DNA from: Escherichia coli
Lineage (GTDB): Bacteria > Pseudomonadota > Gammaproteobacteria > Enterobacterales > Enterobacteriaceae
Strand: one strand, 5' to 3'
NCBI RefSeq assembly: GCF_044647545.1
Contig: NZ_CP172818.1
Length of the DNA stretch: 64,000 bases
Part shown: one piece after another, positions 9,856-45,339 of the stretch
Layout of the letters: every line of letters begins with the position of its first letter
Numbering within the stretch: the stretch's first letter is position 1
Position numbers and translations under genes: made by a program
The notes under the pieces: generated by a model
The model's input: the letters and a program-made list of their open reading frames with translations, nothing else
Database searches by the model: none
What the model was told of the DNA's origin: nothing

Positions 9856-10866
9856 TCATTTCTTACGCGCGTATTTCAGTGAATCCAGCGCTACGGCGAA
9901 GATAATAATCGCCCCTTTGATGATGTACTGCCAGTATGGGTTTACGCCGATATACGTCAGGCCATAGTTGATGACGGTAAAAATAATTACCCCGGTCACC
10001 ACGCCAATCACCGTCCCCACACCGCCGCTGAACGATACGCCGCCTACCACGCACGCCGCGATAGCATCCAGCTCATACATAAAGCCGAGGTTATTGGTGG
10101 CTGAGCCGATACGTCCGGCTTCTAACATCCCGCCGAAGGCATAGAACACACCAGACAACGCGTAGATCATCAGCAGGTTCAGGCCGACGTTGACACCAGA
10201 TACTTTCGCCGCTTCCGGGTTACCGCCAATGGCAAAAATGTTCTTACCGAAGCGGGTTTTGTTCCACAACACCCAGACGAACGCCACCGCAATCAACGCG
10301 TAGAAGGTGATGTAAGAGAGACGGAAACTCCCCAGCGCGACAAAGCCCTGAGCAAAGGTAGAGAAGCCACTGTCGAAACCAGAAATCGGCGACGCCCCGA
10401 CAAAGTCGTAATAGAGCGAGTTGATGCCATAGACGATGATCATCGTGCCGAGCGTGGTAATGAACGGCGTCACGTTGAGATAAGCGATAATCAGGCCGTT
10501 GATCAAACCGATCACCGCACCAATGGCACAGACAATCAGAATAACCAGCGCAATCGGCATCGTCGCCATTTCCGGGAACACTTTGTTGGCGTTATCCATG
10601 GACTGCAATAACGTCGCCGCTACTACTGCCGCCAGCCCCACCTGGCGACCTGCAGAAAGGTCGGTCCCCTGGGTGACAATTAACCCTGCCACACCAAGCG
10701 CGATAATAATACGCACCGATGACTGGGTGAGAATATTACTTAAGTTCAACAGACTTAAAAATGTTGGGTCCTGGAAAATAATAATCGCCAGCAAAACTAA
10801 AAGAACGACGTAAATACCGCCTTCTTTCAGGTAAGTAAGAAAACTTTTCTTATTTAACGCACTCAT
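9856..10866 (-). CDS. mglC: Galactose/methyl-galactoside ABC transporter permease
   Basis: 336 aa, MSALNKKSFLTYLKEGGIYVVLLVL. Confidence 0.95.
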   Translation of the reverse strand: MSALNKKSFLTYLKEGGIYVVLLVLLAIIIFQDPTFLSLLNLSNILTQSSVRIIIALGVAGLIVTQGTDLSAGRQVGLAAVVAATLLQSMDNANKVFPEMATMPIALVILIVCAIGAVIGLINGLIIAYLNVTPFITTLGTMIIVYGINSLYYDFVGASPISGFDSGFSTFAQGFVALGSFRLSYITFYALIAVAFVWVLWNKTRFGKNIFAIGGNPEAAKVSGVNVGLNLLMIYALSGVFYAFGGMLEAGRIGSATNNLGFMYELDAIAACVVGGVSFSGGVGTVIGVVTGVIIFTVINYGLTYIGVNPYWQYIIKGAIIIFAVALDSLKYARKK

Positions 10867-10881
10867 GGGAAGCCCCTAATC

Positions 10882-12402
10882 TTAAAGGTGCAAAGACGCA
10901 AGACGCAGAATTTCGCTTTGCGTTGTTGTTTTTGTATCGACAATTCCGGAAACGAGACCATTGCTCATGACCAGAATACGGTCTGTTATCCCTAACAACT
11001 CTGGCATTTCGGAGGAGATAATAATAATCCCCTTGCCTTTCTTCGCCAGTTCGGCAATTAACTGATAAATCTCAAACTTAGCCCCAACATCAATACCGCG
11101 CGTCGGTTCATCGAGCATTAATATTTCTGGTTGCGTTAACAGCCAGCGACCAATAATCACTTTTTGCTGATTACCACCGGAGAGCGAACCTATTTGCGTC
11201 CGATGACCTGGCGTTTTTACCCGCATCGAATCAATGACCCACTGGGTATCACTTTTCATCCGCGAATTATCCAGCAAGCCAACTTTATTTTTGTAGTTGC
11301 GAATATTGGAAATTAACGAGTTAAAACCGATATCCAGATAGGCATAAATTCCCGTTGAGCGGCGCTCCTCAGTTACCAGAGCAAATCCGTGGTTTATGGC
11401 TTCATTGGCATTATGGTTATTGATCTTTTTGCCGTGCAACGTAATGGTGCCAGCCGATTTCTCGCGAATACCAAATAACGTCTCAACAATATCGGTACGT
11501 TTCGCCCCCACCAGCCCGGCAATACCGAGGATCTCCCCTTTATGCAGATCAAACGAGACATCACGGATCGACGGCTGGCGCAGTGACGTCAGGTTACGCA
11601 CCTCGAGGATGACTTCGCCCGGCTTGTTTTCTTTGTCAGGGAAACGCTGGTTAAGAGAACGCCCAACCATCATGGCGATGATCTTGTCCATCGTCAGCCC
11701 TGCCAGCGGTTCGGTAGCGATCCACTGACCGTCGCGCAATACGGTAACTTCATCACATAACTGGAAGATTTCTTCCATTTTATGCGAGATATAAACAATA
11801 CCGCAGCCGCGCTCTTTTAATTTACGAATAATAGTGAACAGATGATTGACCTCTTTTTCGGTTAACGAAGAAGTCGGTTCATCCATAATCACAATTTTCG
11901 CGTTATAGGAAAACGCTTTGGCAATTTCGATCATCTGCATTTGCGAAACGGATAATGTGCCGACGCGTGCACGCGGATCGATATCAATATCCAGTTCATC
12001 AAAAATCGCTTTGGTTTCGCGGTACATTTTGTCTTGATCGACAAACATGCCTTTGGTGGGATATCGCCCCAGCCACATGTTATCCATCACCGAACGTTGT
12101 AATACCAGATTTAACTCCTGGTGTACCATCGAAATACCATTTTCCAGCGCTTCTTTGGCAGAATGGAAATCGATCTCTTTACCCTGGAATAAAATGGTGC
12201 CGGAGTCTTTTTGATAAATACCAAACAGGCATTTTAATAATGTCGATTTTCCTGCACCATTTTCCCCCATTAATGCATGGATAGAATGTGGTCGGACTTT
12301 TAAATTAACGTTATCAAGTGCCTTAACACCAGGAAAAGACTTGTTGATACCGCTCATTTCCAACAAGTATTCCCCGGAAGACGGAGTCGTTGAGCTGACC
12401 AT
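10882..12402 (-). CDS. mglA: Galactose/methyl-galactoside ABC transporter ATP-binding protein (duplicated ABC domains)
   Basis: 506 aa, [29 protein letters not shown]; Walker [10 protein letters not shown]. Confidence 0.95.
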
Positions 12403-12462
12403 ATAATTTTACCTTGTTGGCCATACAATAAGGGCGCAGTAAACAACTGCGCCCAATCAGTC

Positions 12463-13461
12463 TTATTTCTTGCTGAATTCAGCCAGGTTGTCTTTATCTA
12501 CGCCAACATAAGGTACGCGGACCACTTTGTTGTCGATTTTCCAGTTGGTGCCATCAGCCGCACCTTTGCCATCGGCCAGGTTTTTCGCCAAATCAAAGGT
12601 CGCTTTCGCCTGGTTGTTAGCATCGTTCAGTACGGTGCCCGCCAGTGCACCGGATTTCACCAGCGCCAGCGCTTCTGGCAGCGCATCGACGCCAAACACC
12701 GGAATGCTGGACTTGTTGTGTGCTTTCAGTGCTTCTACCGCGCCCATTGCCATCGCATCGTTGTTGGCGATAACCACTTCGATTTTGTTGGCGTTCGGGC
12801 CAGATAGCCAGGCGTCCATCTTATCTTTCGCCTGAGCGGTATCCCACATAGCGGTATCTAACTGTAACTGTTCAGTTTTGATGCCTTTGTCGTTCAATTC
12901 TTTAATCACGTAAGTGGTACGTGCTTCTGCATCCGGATGGCCCGGCTCACCTTTCAGCAGTACGAACTGAATCTGACCGTCTTTGTTCAGATCCCAACCC
13001 TGATTCGCCGCCCAGTGTTTAGCAATCAAATCGCCCTGAATAATGCCGGACTCTTTGGAGTCAGTGCCAACGTAGTAGGCTTTGTCGTAGCTATCCAGCG
13101 CCTTACGAGACGGTTCTTTGTTGAAGAAAACCACCGGCACGTTTTGCCCACGCGCTTTCTCAATCACCGTACCCGCAGCTGCCGGGTCAACCAGGTTGAT
13201 TGCCAGTGCCTTCACCCCTTTCGCCAGCAATACGTCGATCTGATCGTTCTGCTTGGACTGGTCATTCTGAGAATCATTCATCAGCAGCTGAACATCTGGC
13301 GCGGCTTTCGCATCTTGCTCAATAGCCTTGCGCACTACAGACATAAAGTTATCGTCGTACTTATAGATTGTTACACCAATGCGAGTATCAGCAGCGTGTG
13401 CAGCGGCACCGAATAACATGCTGGCCATCACAGCAGACAGGGTTAACACCTTCTTATTCAT
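12463..13461 (-). CDS. mglB: Periplasmic D-galactose/D-glucose-binding protein
   Basis: 332 aa, [39 protein letters not shown]. Confidence 0.96.
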
Positions 13462-40768: not shown

Positions 40769-40885
40769 CGATTTCTGCGGTTAAAGCGGATGAAGCTCGC
40801 CTTCGTCCGCTCTCCCCTTCTCTTTTCTGCCTTTTTTAGCCAGGATTAACGCTCAGTTAACTTTTAAGAGTATTGCGGAGCCGTT

Positions 40886-41872
40886 GTGACCAGAACCAAC
40901 CTCATCACCGGTTTTCTCGGCAGCGGGAAAACTACGTCGATTCTTCATCTGTTAGCCCATAAAGATCCCAACGAAAAATGGGCGGTACTGGTTAATGAAT
41001 TTGGGGAAGTCGGAATTGATGGTGCTTTGCTCGCCGATAGCGGCGCATTGCTGAAAGAGATCCCCGGCGGCTGCATGTGCTGCGTTAATGGTTTACCTAT
41101 GCAGGTAGGGTTGAATACCTTACTGCGTCAGGGAAAACCAGACCGCTTGTTGATAGAGCCGACCGGGCTAGGCCATCCGAAACAGATCCTCGATCTCTTA
41201 ACCGCACCCGTCTATGAACCGTGGATAGATCTGCGCGCCACGTTGTGCATTCTCGATCCACGCCTGCTGCTGGACGAAAAAAGCGCCAGCAATGAAAACT
41301 TCCGTGACCAGCTGGCTGCCGCAGACATTATTGTCGCCAATAAATCCGACCGTGCGACGCCCGAAAGTGAGCAAGCGCTACAGCGCTGGTGGCAGCAAAA
41401 TGGTGGCGATCGGCAATTAATTCACAGTGAGCATGGGAAAGTTGACGGTCATCTTCTGGATTTGCCGCGTCGCAATTTAGCCGAGTTGCCCGCCAGCGCC
41501 GCGCATTCTCATCAGCATGTCGTGAAAAAAGGGTTAGCAGCGTTAAGCCTGCCAGAGCATCAACGCTGGCGTCGCAGTCTGAACAGCGGGCAAGGATATC
41601 AGGCCTGCGGCTGGATATTCGACGCTGATACGGTATTCGACACCATTGGCATTCTGGAATGGGCGCGACTTGCACCGGTAGAACGCGTCAAAGGCGTGCT
41701 GCGTATTCCCGAAGGGCTGGTGCGAATCAACCGTCAGGGCGATGACCTGCACATTGAAACGCAAAACGTTGCGCCACCGGACAGCCGTATTGAGCTGATT
41801 TCCAGCAGCGAAGCTGACTGGAATGCCTTGCAGAGCGCGCTGTTGAAGCTTCGTTTAGCGACTACCGCGTAA
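40886..41872 (+). CDS. yeiR: COG0523/CobW-family zinc-binding GTPase YeiR
   Basis: 328 aa, GTG start; P-loop GFLGSGKTT and CxCC motif (GGCMCC). Confidence 0.92.
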   Translation: MTRTNLITGFLGSGKTTSILHLLAHKDPNEKWAVLVNEFGEVGIDGALLADSGALLKEIPGGCMCCVNGLPMQVGLNTLLRQGKPDRLLIEPTGLGHPKQILDLLTAPVYEPWIDLRATLCILDPRLLLDEKSASNENFRDQLAAADIIVANKSDRATPESEQALQRWWQQNGGDRQLIHSEHGKVDGHLLDLPRRNLAELPASAAHSHQHVVKKGLAALSLPEHQRWRRSLNSGQGYQACGWIFDADTVFDTIGILEWARLAPVERVKGVLRIPEGLVRINRQGDDLHIETQNVAPPDSRIELISSSEADWNALQSALLKLRLATTA

Positions 41873-41910
41873 GGTTGCCTGCGTTTTTCAGTAAGATAAT
41901 TAGAGAAAAT

Positions 41911-42624
41911 ATGATTAAAAATTTGCCGCAAATAGTGTTGTTGAATATTGTCGGCCTCGCGCTGTTTCTTTCCTGGTATATTCCCGTTAATCATGGATTC
42001 TGGTTGCCGATTGATGCGGATATTTTTTATTTCTTTAATCAGAAACTGGTCGAAAGTAAGGCCTTTTTGTGGCTGGTTGCATTGACCAACAATCGCGCCT
42101 TCGACGGTTGTTCACTGCTGGCGATGGGTATGTTGATGCTGAGTTTCTGGCTGAAAGAAAACGCCCCTGGCAGACGACGTATCGTGATTATTGGTCTGGT
42201 CATGCTATTAACTGCAGTGGTATTAAACCAGCTGGGTCAGGCATTAATTCCTGTAAAACGGGCCAGCCCAACATTGACTTTTACCGATATTAACCGCGTC
42301 AGCGAACTGCTCTCTGTTCCCACGAAAGATGCCTCACGAGATAGCTTTCCCGGCGATCACGGTATGATGCTGCTTATTTTTTCGGCATTCATGTGGCGTT
42401 ATTTCGGCAAAGTTGCAGGCCTTATCGCCCTTATTATTTTTGTGGTTTTTGCATTTCCCAGAGTAATGATTGGCGCACACTGGTTTACTGACATCATTGT
42501 TGGTTCGATGACCGTGATATTGATCGGTTTGCCCTGGGTGTTGCTGACGCCATTAAGTGATCGATTAATCACCTTTTTTGACAAATCACTACCGGGAAAA
42601 AACAAACATTTCCAAAACAAATAA
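41911..42624 (+). CDS. lpxT: Lipid A 1-diphosphate synthase LpxT (PAP2 family)
   Basis: Track ORF 41875..42624 trimmed to MIKNLPQIVLLNIVGLALFLSWYIP (237 aa). Confidence 0.9.
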   Translation: MIKNLPQIVLLNIVGLALFLSWYIPVNHGFWLPIDADIFYFFNQKLVESKAFLWLVALTNNRAFDGCSLLAMGMLMLSFWLKENAPGRRRIVIIGLVMLLTAVVLNQLGQALIPVKRASPTLTFTDINRVSELLSVPTKDASRDSFPGDHGMMLLIFSAFMWRYFGKVAGLIALIIFVVFAFPRVMIGAHWFTDIIVGSMTVILIGLPWVLLTPLSDRLITFFDKSLPGKNKHFQNK

Positions 42625-43035
42625 CTCACAGTAATTAACATCATCAGGGTTATTTTTATAGTGAGGATAATCCTGATGATGCGCACCGTGCTTTCATCTA
42701 TCGAACGCAAAAATCATTCTCTAAGTAAATGAATGTATTGCATGCGTTTCACTCAATCGTACTTTAATTGACCAATCCCGCTTATTAACTTTCTGTATCA
42801 CTTTTTCTTATAAAAAATCATGTAAAACCGCTCGCCAAGACCGCACCAATCGGGTAATCTCGAACTCGTTTTGCCTCGGCGGTAGATTATCCTCACAGCA
42901 TATAATTTTGTGCGTTAGTCCACAGATTTGGCCTTAAGGAATTGTTTCAACATGCCCAGGTAATTAGTCTCGTGTCGCTTGGCATTTTTTTATAACGATA
43001 TTTGTCGTTAAGGACTTCAAGGGAAAACAAACAAC

Positions 43036-43602
43036 ATGGTCAAATCTCAACCGATTTTGAGATATATCTTGCGCGGGATCCCCGCGATTGCAGTAGCGGT
43101 TCTGCTTTCTGCATGTAGTGCAAATAACACCGCAAAGAATATGCATCCTGAGACACGTGCAGTGGGTAGTGAAACATCATCACTGCAAGCTTCTCAGGAT
43201 GAATTTGAAAACCTGGTTCGTAATGTCGACGTAAAATCGCGGATTATGGATCAGTATGCTGACTGGAAAGGCGTACGCTATCGTCTGGGCGGCAGCACTA
43301 AAAAAGGTATCGATTGTTCTGGTTTCGTACAGCGTACATTCCGTGAGCAATTTGGCTTAGAACTTCCGCGTTCGACTTATGAACAGCAGGAAATGGGTAA
43401 ATCTGTTTCCCGCAGTAATTTGCGTACGGGTGATTTAGTTCTGTTCCGTGCCGGTTCAACGGGACGCCATGTCGGTATTTATATCGGCAACAACCAGTTT
43501 GTCCATGCTTCCACCAGCAGTGGCGTTATTATTTCCAGCATGAATGAACCATACTGGAAGAAGCGTTACAACGAAGCACGCCGGGTTCTCAGCCGCAGCT
43601 AA
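43036..43602 (+). CDS. mepS: Murein DD-endopeptidase MepS (Spr), NlpC/P60 lipoprotein
   Basis: 188 aa, [36 protein letters not shown]; lipobox LSAC. Confidence 0.95.
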
Positions 43603-43650
43603 TAAACCGTTTGGATGCAATCCCTTGGCTATCCTGACGAGTTAACTGAA

Positions 43651-43676
43651 AGCACTGCTTAGGCAGTGCTTTTTTG
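43651..43676 (+). terminator. Rho-independent terminator of mepS
   Basis: Hairpin AGCACTGC-TTAG-GCAGTGCT followed by TTTTTT. Confidence 0.75.
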
Positions 43677-43782
43677 TTTTCATTCATCAGAGAAAATGAT
43701 GTTTCCGCGTCTTGATCCAGGCTATAGTCCGGTCATTGTTATCTTTTAAATGTTGTCGTAATTTCAGGAAATTAACGGAATC

Positions 43783-45339
43783 ATGTTTATACGCGCTCCC
43801 AATTCTGGACGTAAGCTCCTGCTTACCTGCATTGTTGCAGGCGTGATGATTGCGATACTGGTGAGCTGCCTTCAGTTTTTAGTGGCCTGGCATAAGCACG
43901 AAGTCAAATACGACACACTGATTACCGACGTACAAAAGTATCTCGATACCTATTTTGCCGACCTGAAATCCACTACTGACCGGCTCCAGCCGCTGACCTT
44001 AGATACCTGCCAGCAGGCTAACCCCGAACTGACCGCTCGCGCGGCGTTTAGCATGAATGTCCGTACGTTTGTGCTGGTGAAAGATAAAAAAACATTCTGT
44101 TCATCTGCGACTGGTGAGATGGACATTCCACTAAAAGAATTGATTCCGGCGCTCGACATTAATAAAAATGTCGATATGGCGATCTTACCCGGTACGCCGA
44201 TGGTGCCGAACAAACCCGCAATCGTCATCTGGTATCGCAACCCTTTGCTGAAAAATAGCGGCGTCTTTGCCGCTCTGAATCTCAATCTGACGCCTTCACT
44301 CTTCTATAGCTCACGGCAGGAAGATTACGATGGTGTCGCCCTCATTATTGGTAATACTGCTCTATCTACCTTTTCGTCACGTTTGATGAATGTTAATGAA
44401 TTAACCGACATGCCGGTCCGTGAAACTAAAATTGCGGGCATTCCTCTGACCGTTCGGCTTTATGCGGATGACTGGACATGGAACGATGTGTGGTACGCAT
44501 TTTTACTGGGTGGCATGAGTGGAACTTTCGTTGGACTTCTCTGCTATTACCTGATGAGTGTGCGTATGCGCCCAGGCAGAGAAATCATGACCGCCATCAA
44601 GCGCGAACAATTTTACGTGGTATATCAACCGGTGGTTGATACACAAGCTTTGCGGGTAACGGGCCTGGAAGTACTGCTACGCTGGCGGCATCCAGTAGCA
44701 GGAGAAATCCCCCCGGATGCCTTCATTAACTTTGCCGAAGCGCAAAAGATGATTGTGCCACTGACTCAGCACCTGTTTGAGTTGATTGCCCGCGATGCCG
44801 CAGAATTAGAAAAAGTACTGCCGGTAGGCGTCAAATTTGGCATTAACATTGCGCCGGCCCACTTGCACAGCGAAAGCTTTAAAGCGGATATCCAGAAACT
44901 ACTCACTTCCCTGCCCGCACACCATTTCCAGATTGTGCTGGAAATTACCGAGCGCGATATGCTGAAAGAGCGAGAAGCCACACAACTCTTCGCCTGGCTG
45001 CATTCGGTCGGCGTAGAAATTGCTATTGATGACTTCGGCACCGGGCACAGCGCGCTTATCTATCTTGAGCGTTTTACGCTCGATTATCTGAAAATTGATC
45101 GTGGATTTATCAACGCCATCGGTACGGAAACAATCACTTCACCCGTACTTGACGCGGTGCTGACGCTGGCGAAACGTCTCAATATGCTGACAGTTGCTGA
45201 AGGGGTCGAAACGCCAGAACAGGCACGATGGCTAAGCGAACGCGGCGTTAATTTCATGCAAGGCTACTGGATTAGTCGCCCGTTACCGCTGGACGATTTT
45301 GTTCGCTGGCTGAAGAAACCGTATACGCCGCAGTGGTAA
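43783..45339 (+). CDS. pdeN: c-di-GMP phosphodiesterase PdeN (Rtn), EAL domain membrane protein
   Basis: 518 aa, MFIRAPNSGRKLLLTCIVAGVMIAILVSCLQFLVAW; C-terminal EAL-domain motifs. Confidence 0.92.
   Translation: MFIRAPNSGRKLLLTCIVAGVMIAILVSCLQFLVAWHKHEVKYDTLITDVQKYLDTYFADLKSTTDRLQPLTLDTCQQANPELTARAAFSMNVRTFVLVKDKKTFCSSATGEMDIPLKELIPALDINKNVDMAILPGTPMVPNKPAIVIWYRNPLLKNSGVFAALNLNLTPSLFYSSRQEDYDGVALIIGNTALSTFSSRLMNVNELTDMPVRETKIAGIPLTVRLYADDWTWNDVWYAFLLGGMSGTFVGLLCYYLMSVRMRPGREIMTAIKREQFYVVYQPVVDTQALRVTGLEVLLRWRHPVAGEIPPDAFINFAEAQKMIVPLTQHLFELIARDAAELEKVLPVGVKFGINIAPAHLHSESFKADIQKLLTSLPAHHFQIVLEITERDMLKEREATQLFAWLHSVGVEIAIDDFGTGHSALIYLERFTLDYLKIDRGFINAIGTETITSPVLDAVLTLAKRLNMLTVAEGVETPEQARWLSERGVNFMQGYWISRPLPLDDFVRWLKKPYTPQW

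Follow-up and report, generated by a model that had tools for sequence, protein, structure and literature searches.

Organization of the lpxT-mepS locus

The DNA analyzed here, referred to as the window, is a 64,000-nt stretch in which yeiR, lpxT, mepS and pdeN follow one another on the + strand (Table 1). The locus is that of E. coli: over the 541 bp around the hairpin described below, the identity is 100% to strain FDAARGOS_497 and 99.1% to K-12 derivatives, and the 96 nt 3' of the lpxT stop codon show no differences from K-12 MG1655. K-12 coordinates are obtained by adding 2226943 to the window coordinates. The offset was checked against the Term-seq 3' end of the mepS terminator (2270620), which maps to window position 43677, within the U-run that follows the 43648-43673 stem. 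lpxT and mepS are separated by a spacer of 411 nt (42625-43035), with a GC content of 34-41% compared with 43-50% in the flanking genes; the spacer of MG1655 carries no RefSeq feature.

Table 1. Coordinates of genes, hairpin elements and transcript features in the window.
Feature	Position	Strand	Source or remark
yeiR	40886-41872	+	ORF list, RefSeq annotation
lpxT CDS, 237 aa	41911-42624	+	ORF list; RefSeq annotation of the identical sequence in FDAARGOS_497 and K-12
A-rich motif AATTAAC	42633-42639	+	Abuts the stem on its 5' side; 70-90% column identity in 71 spacers
Hairpin 5' arm CATCATCAGGGTTAT	42639-42653	+	Sequence, RNAfold; 42649 polymorphic in E. coli (G, C or T)
Apical region	42654-42666	+	13 nt for the 15-bp stem; five extra U-A/U.G pairs leave a 3-nt loop (RNAfold)
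Hairpin 3' arm ATAATCCTGATGATG	42667-42681	+	Sequence, RNAfold
Steady-state RNA 3' end, 3 nt past the stem (...GAUGAUGCGC-3')	42684	+	Term-seq, Adams et al. 2021, supplementary file 1
Tail between hairpin and mepS P2 start, candidate Rho-loading/termination zone (inferred)	42685-42866	+	C-rich, G-poor, untranslated
mepS	43036-43602	+	ORF list, RefSeq annotation
pdeN	from 43783	+	ORF list, RefSeq annotation

Structure and occurrence of the hairpin in E. coli

The stem begins 15 nt past position 42624, where the lpxT stop codon ends. Its arms mismatch at one position only, where G42649 faces T42671; the two bases form a G.U wobble in + strand RNA and a C.A mismatch on the - strand. With the five additional pairs predicted by RNAfold, the + strand RNA stem reaches 20 bp and is closed by a 3-nt loop. 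In its 76-nt context the hairpin has an energy of -25.8 kcal/mol, compared with an average of -12.7 +/- 2.8 kcal/mol for dinucleotide shuffles, of which none among 200 is as good (z = -4.74). The - strand folds as well (-23.8 kcal/mol in context), though more weakly when the same 43 nt of the hairpin proper are considered (-14.2 vs -23.7 for the + strand). The stem is followed by CGCACCGTG, in which a single T is found among 9 nt and the first 6 nt (CGCACC) contain no U. These results reproduce most of the preliminary description, namely an AT-rich spacer of about 410 bp and a 15-bp stem with a 13-nt loop, placed 15 nt after the lpxT stop and lacking a U-tract; the single bulge reported there is the G.U wobble.

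A consensus terminator scan does not call the lpxT hairpin, and a permissive Rfam 15 search of positions 41500-44000 returns only chance-level matches to eukaryotic miRNA and snoRNA families (E >= 0.44). The AATTAAC motif on the 5' side of the stem is kept across genera in the alignment described below (A1) and could derive from a former terminator A-tract.

Within the species the hairpin is present in 5425 of 5426 complete genomes, at a median of one and a maximum of two places per genome, and is absent from the plasmids of complete E. coli genomes. The 64-kb window holds no second copy of the arm sequence, with 0.11 matches expected by chance. REP/BIME elements or another dispersed repeat were considered and rejected, given one copy per locus and genome and no REP consensus. 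Among the E. coli strains read, the lower 10 bp of the stem are invariant, and position 42649 varies among G, C and T, so that the apposed bases are G.U, C.U or U.U. Two strains carry insertion sequences at this site. In strain 20A24, IS1A (L086:2544-3330) breaks the 3' arm after ...GGATAATC, and in strain EC2001 the IS5-like element ISKpn26 (L087:1300-2500) has inserted downstream of the hairpin and ahead of the mepS promoters. These isolates, at least, thus tolerate losing the intact hairpin.

Conservation across Enterobacteriaceae

For comparison, one genome was taken per species with LpxT, yielding 80 loci or, with the window, 81 sequences from Escherichia, Salmonella, Citrobacter, Enterobacter, Lelliottia, Kosakonia, Klebsiella, Raoultella, Phytobacter, Atlantibacter, Franconibacter and other genera. 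mepS is the next gene after lpxT in 78 of the 80 loci, which is everywhere the contig permits, and in 70 of these 78 the spacer measures 400-430 nt. A hairpin of -11 kcal/mol or better is located 12-39 nt past the lpxT CDS in 78 of the 81 sequences (the window and 77 of the 80 others), and ten representative hairpins give z scores of -3.9 to -7.9. The hairpin belongs to the least conserved quarter of the spacer, and the 60 nt just 3' of it are the least conserved part of all. The mepS-proximal ~310 nt (42725-43035) are mostly 80-99% identical across genera.

The stem occurs in several sequence versions. Escherichia and most Citrobacter share the lower stem CAUCAUCAGG/CCUGAUGAUG. The Enterobacter, Kosakonia and Lelliottia group has CAUCAGGGAUCG/CGAUCCCUGAUG at this place, and Klebsiella and Raoultella have AAGGGAUC/GGUCCCUU. 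At the same position, stems of unrelated sequence occur in Salmonella (AUUACCUUCAGCGAUG...), C. amalonaticus S646 (AUCGCCAUC...) and Atlantibacter (AAACCGCCA...). Covariation was scored for one specified structure and compared with shuffled and slid controls. In alignment A1 (56 sequences, 15-pair structure), 79.4% of cells are paired compared with 67.1% after shuffling; 13 of the 15 pairs have changed on both sides, in 101 cells where 39 are expected. None of the five measures is reached by any of 500 shuffles, a count that is not a probability because the sequences are related. Registers slid by 1-3 columns are only 26-43% paired. This slide control, together with the wholesale replacement of the stem, argues for selection on pairing. 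RNAalifold on a MAFFT alignment recovers just 6 pairs because the loop length varies.

Strand preference is less clear. When the best hairpin is taken on each strand, the + strand version is the stabler in 45 sequences and the - strand version in 30 (p = 0.088). An earlier count of 60 vs 12 in favor of the + strand (p = 5e-7) was dropped as biased, the hairpins having been selected on that strand.

At least 6 U within the 8 nt behind the hairpin are found in 14 of the 81 sequences, contributed by Klebsiella, Raoultella, Atlantibacter, Pseudenterobacter and some Enterobacter and Lelliottia (for example UCAGGGAUCGUUUUCGAUCCCUGAAUUUUUUU). By sequence, the lpxT hairpins of these 14 are canonical intrinsic terminators. 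Escherichia, Salmonella and Citrobacter have U scores of 1-5 and no U-tract. U-less and U-tract hairpins do not differ significantly in stem length (bp p = 0.06) or stability (energy p = 0.41). The E. coli hairpin is thus the positional counterpart of an lpxT terminator in which the hairpin module is kept and the U-tract module varies.

Transcript ends and start sites

The curated Term-seq data of Adams et al. 2021 (eLife 10:e62438) list a + strand 3' end at 2269627 in MG1655 grown in LB to OD 0.4, with a mean count of 1323, the class 'orphan' and a printed flank ending in ...CCTGATGATGCGC. The table prints 50 nt upstream and 10 nt downstream of each end, as verified on the SgrS row. In the window this end is position 42684, which is 60 nt past the lpxT stop. 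Its read count is low, and it occurs in one of three growth conditions; the parts of the LB OD 2.0 and M63 tables that were searched show no such end near the locus.

SMRT-Cappable-seq (Yan et al. 2018) reports operons comprising b2173 and b2174 (start 2267795) and b2174 alone (start 2268825), with mepS as a separate unit that starts at 2269810 or 2269919 and ends at 2270620. None of the coordinates in its tables begins with 22696, a range that includes the hairpin. The mepS start sites correspond to window positions 42867 (P2) and 42976 (P1). Their 109-nt spacing agrees with the length difference between the two mepS mRNAs that Elgrably-Weiss et al. 2024 describe in their work on OxyS, where the OxyS site is G146-G156 in the long P2 mRNA and G37-G47 in the short P1 mRNA. 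The nearest mapped mepS start lies 186 nt downstream of the hairpin and 183 nt from 42684, which places the hairpin outside the mepS leader.

The upstream operon structure is inconsistently reported. The yeiR-lpxT start (2267795) corresponds to window position 40852 and the lpxT-alone start (2268825, flagged 'novel') to 41882, and Herrera et al. 2010 failed to amplify a joint yeiR-lpxT transcript by RT-PCR. TERMITe has no lpxT entry, and a literature search on lpxT with sRNA, Hfq or bicyclomycin retrieved nothing concerning the lpxT 3' region.

Two of the tests proposed in the preliminary description come out in favor of the hairpin: 3'-end mapping places an RNA end 3 nt beyond the stem, and a hairpin is found at the same place in 77 of 80 other species, with covariation in alignment A1. 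A lack of 3' ends and a lack of stem conservation, which had been named as refuting outcomes, are both contradicted by the data.

Other features of the spacer and of mepS

On the + strand, ~70-95 nt past the lpxT stop, about 50 of 80 enterobacterial spacers contain a Pho-box-like repeat, CTGTCAT-N4-CTGTCAT. It is perfect in 10 spacers from Citrobacter, Enterobacter, Phytobacter and Pseudenterobacter; examples are L010:3786-3803 and L043, about +69 nt past the lpxT stop codon. The repeat is degenerate in E. coli (42694-42711, CTTTCATCTATCGAACGC) and in Salmonella. A conserved TAAAAT/AAATGAA block follows ~12 nt past the repeat and aligns to E. coli 42727-42735. The arrangement points to a possible PhoB-dependent promoter in front of mepS in other genera. 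In the PhoB ChIP-seq paper on E. coli, neither mepS nor lpxT is mentioned in the main text.

Positions 42725-42866, the ~140 nt before the mepS P2 start, are 80-99% identical in at least 15 genera and include conserved blocks such as TTTCTGTATCAC, TTCTTATAAAAAATCA, CTCGC and ATCGGGTAATCTCGAACTCGTTTTGCC. Conservation extends to the length of the spacer (~413 nt). The constraint on this segment exceeds by far what a plain promoter would need. A weak terminator-like pattern, TCGGGTAATCTCGA then ACTCGTTTTG (42850-42878), spans the P2 start at 42867 and hardly varies between genera; a promoter or leader element is more probable here than a terminator.

Further Term-seq ends lie 4-6 nt before the mepS ATG (window 43030-43032; K-12 2269973 and 2269975), seen in LB OD 0.4 and in a second sheet of the table of Adams et al. 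2021, and inside mepS at codon ~53 (window 43193; K-12 2270136), with counts of about 10,000-13,000. The ends in the mepS leader and within mepS are both scored as not Rho-dependent in that study and could represent processing products or RNAs that end prematurely in the leader or coding sequence.

Function of the hairpin

We conclude that the hairpin is very probably the 3'-terminal stem-loop of the lpxT mRNA. As such it would close both the lpxT and the yeiR-lpxT mRNA and represent the Escherichia version of a terminator hairpin that follows lpxT in Enterobacteriaceae. For the complete mechanism, in which transcription ends downstream, probably through Rho, and exonucleases trim the RNA back to a stem that protects the lpxT mRNA, our confidence is more modest, though we still favor it. 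RNA polymerase would probably be released inefficiently at the hairpin because the U-tract is absent. Transcription most likely stops in the ~180-nt untranslated tail, rich in C and poor in G, that precedes the mepS promoters, with Rho as the suspected terminating factor. PNPase and RNase II, acting 3' to 5', would then trim the tail and stall at the stem, leaving the end 3 nt past it, and the stem would shield the lpxT mRNA from further decay. Both the trimming and the stabilizing effect are inferred. Together, hairpin and downstream termination would separate lpxT transcription from the mepS promoters.

The 186 nt past the hairpin contain 48 C and 24 G, and the resulting skew, (C-G)/(C+G) = 0.33, is in the top 0.5% of 186-nt windows in the 64 kb. 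Species with a U-tract have an equal downstream skew, which does not separate the mechanisms and so is not specific evidence for a Rho-loading site. Supplementary file 2 of Adams et al. 2021 gives no + strand bicyclomycin-sensitive region between 2266280 and 2272670. This may reflect weak lpxT expression together with masking by the strong mepS promoters, or Rho may play no role. Dar & Sorek 2018 describe E. coli Rho-dependent transcripts that end precisely after stable stem-loops without U-tails, to which PNPase and RNase II trim, with rut sites just downstream.

The most serious competitor is an atypical, weak intrinsic terminator, in which the 20-bp hairpin itself frees polymerase without a U-tract, possibly aided by NusA or NusG, and the +3 end results from nibbling. 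We regard this as rather unlikely, even though the positional counterparts in U-tract genera are canonical intrinsic terminators by sequence, no bicyclomycin-sensitive region is reported at the locus (Adams et al. 2021), and Dar & Sorek 2018 raise transition states with inefficient intrinsic termination backed by Rho. Past the stem, U is missing from the first 6 nt and occurs once in 9, the consensus scan is negative, and the mapped end lies at +3, whereas intrinsic terminators usually end 7-9 nt into a U-tract. Without a U-tract, hairpins are poor terminators for the E. coli polymerase. The preliminary description had also entertained an unannotated small RNA or a long leader controlling mepS. 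The length of the spacer and the high conservation of most of it speak for this idea, as does a promoter-like TTAACA-16-TATAGT that overlaps the hairpin. That promoter candidate was rejected, however, since its -10 element sits in the loop, is not kept outside Escherichia and coincides with no listed start site. The mapped mepS starts are at 42867 and 42976, with none in the 22696xx range of SMRT-Cappable-seq; the mapped end is a 3' end following lpxT; and no Rfam family matches. Moreover, the U-tail that Hfq-dependent small RNAs need is missing, and it is the mepS-proximal ~310 nt, not the quarter containing the hairpin, that are conserved. A small RNA or leader is accordingly very improbable.

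The palindrome could also act at the DNA level, as an operator for a dimeric DNA-binding protein or as a remnant of recombination or of a mobile element. The inverted repeat of 15 bp is nearly perfect, its core CAGGGATC-N6-GATCCCTG is conserved in sequence in several genera, and the folding asymmetry between the strands is weak. Complete replacement of the stem with retention of pairing in Salmonella, C. amalonaticus S646 and Atlantibacter nevertheless agrees with selection for structure and not for a recognition sequence. The U-tracts of the 14 species lie solely 3' of the stem on the + strand, and 5'-arm substitutions in the Escherichia relatives L003 and L004 keep U.G/G.U pairing only in + strand RNA. 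No locus or genome holds a second copy, and a + strand RNA 3' end maps to the hairpin base; a DNA-level role is very unlikely. We give hardly any credence to a translational element, in which the hairpin would sequester the start of an 18-codon ORF (42676-42732, ATGATGCGC...TGA). GAGGA in the loop (42663-42667) does lie 8 nt upstream of its ATG (42676). Against this, the ORF undergoes non-synonymous changes within E. coli (T-V to L-L, E to A, R to S), neither its length nor its sequence is kept in other genera, and conservation in the spacer is lowest just 3' of the hairpin. The ORF (MMRTVLSSIERKNHSLSK) is probably not a gene.

A 3'-terminal stem-loop of the lpxT mRNA hence remains our preferred reading. 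Of the functions offered in the preliminary description, a Rho-dependent or atypical terminator, or a processing or stability element, fits the +3 end and the terminator counterparts in other genera; the small RNA or mepS leader is not supported and can be removed from consideration. The result fills an annotation gap, the lpxT mRNA 3' end having so far existed only as an 'orphan' entry in a supplementary table.

A more speculative extension, which we think improbable, is that the U-less hairpin forms a conditional boundary: with termination behind it depending on Rho and on the untranslated tail, lpxT read-through into the conserved segment before mepS could change with growth or stress. If true, lipid A phosphorylation and undecaprenyl-phosphate recycling would be coupled to expression of the peptidoglycan hydrolase MepS, and the repeated gain and loss of the U-tract would reflect selection for or against this coupling.

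Comparison with known terminators and repeats

REP/BIME palindromes are 3' stabilizers of mRNA, as in malE-malF. The lpxT hairpin resembles them in being an intergenic palindrome 3' of a gene that may block 3' exonucleases. They differ in that REP/BIME elements form a dispersed multi-copy family with a consensus, whereas the lpxT hairpin is single-copy and lacks the REP consensus. With intrinsic terminators it shares the stable stem-loop on the coding strand; it has neither the U-tract of about 7-8 nt nor an RNA end about 7-9 nt past the stem, the lpxT end being at +3.

The closest relatives by position are the lpxT terminators of Klebsiella, Raoultella, Atlantibacter and Pseudenterobacter, which have a stable hairpin at the same place and in the same orientation as in E. 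coli. Except in Atlantibacter, with its unrelated stem, a stem core of CAGGG...CCCUG or AAGGG...CCCUU is common to E. coli and these terminators. The E. coli hairpin is distinguished by the missing U-tract, a longer upper stem rich in AU and GU pairs (20 vs 8-11 bp) and the end at +3. With one hairpin kept in at least 15 genera and a variable U-tract, the lpxT 3' end is a clean comparative example, and the series across Enterobacteriaceae illustrates terminator-type switching well. Dar & Sorek 2018 propose that terminators may switch type by altering U content alone, and the natural U-tract and U-less lpxT variants could test the predicted switching between intrinsic and factor-dependent termination directly.

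The lpxT hairpin agrees with the Dar & Sorek class in its stable stem, precise end at the base, absence of a U-tail, independence from any repeated element and downstream excess of C over G, the last being equally strong in species with a U-tract; these are the descriptive features of a class whose functional hallmarks are bicyclomycin sensitivity and trimming by PNPase and RNase II. It is an ordinary, hitherto unannotated example of the U-less 3' stem-loop class and leaves established knowledge unchanged.
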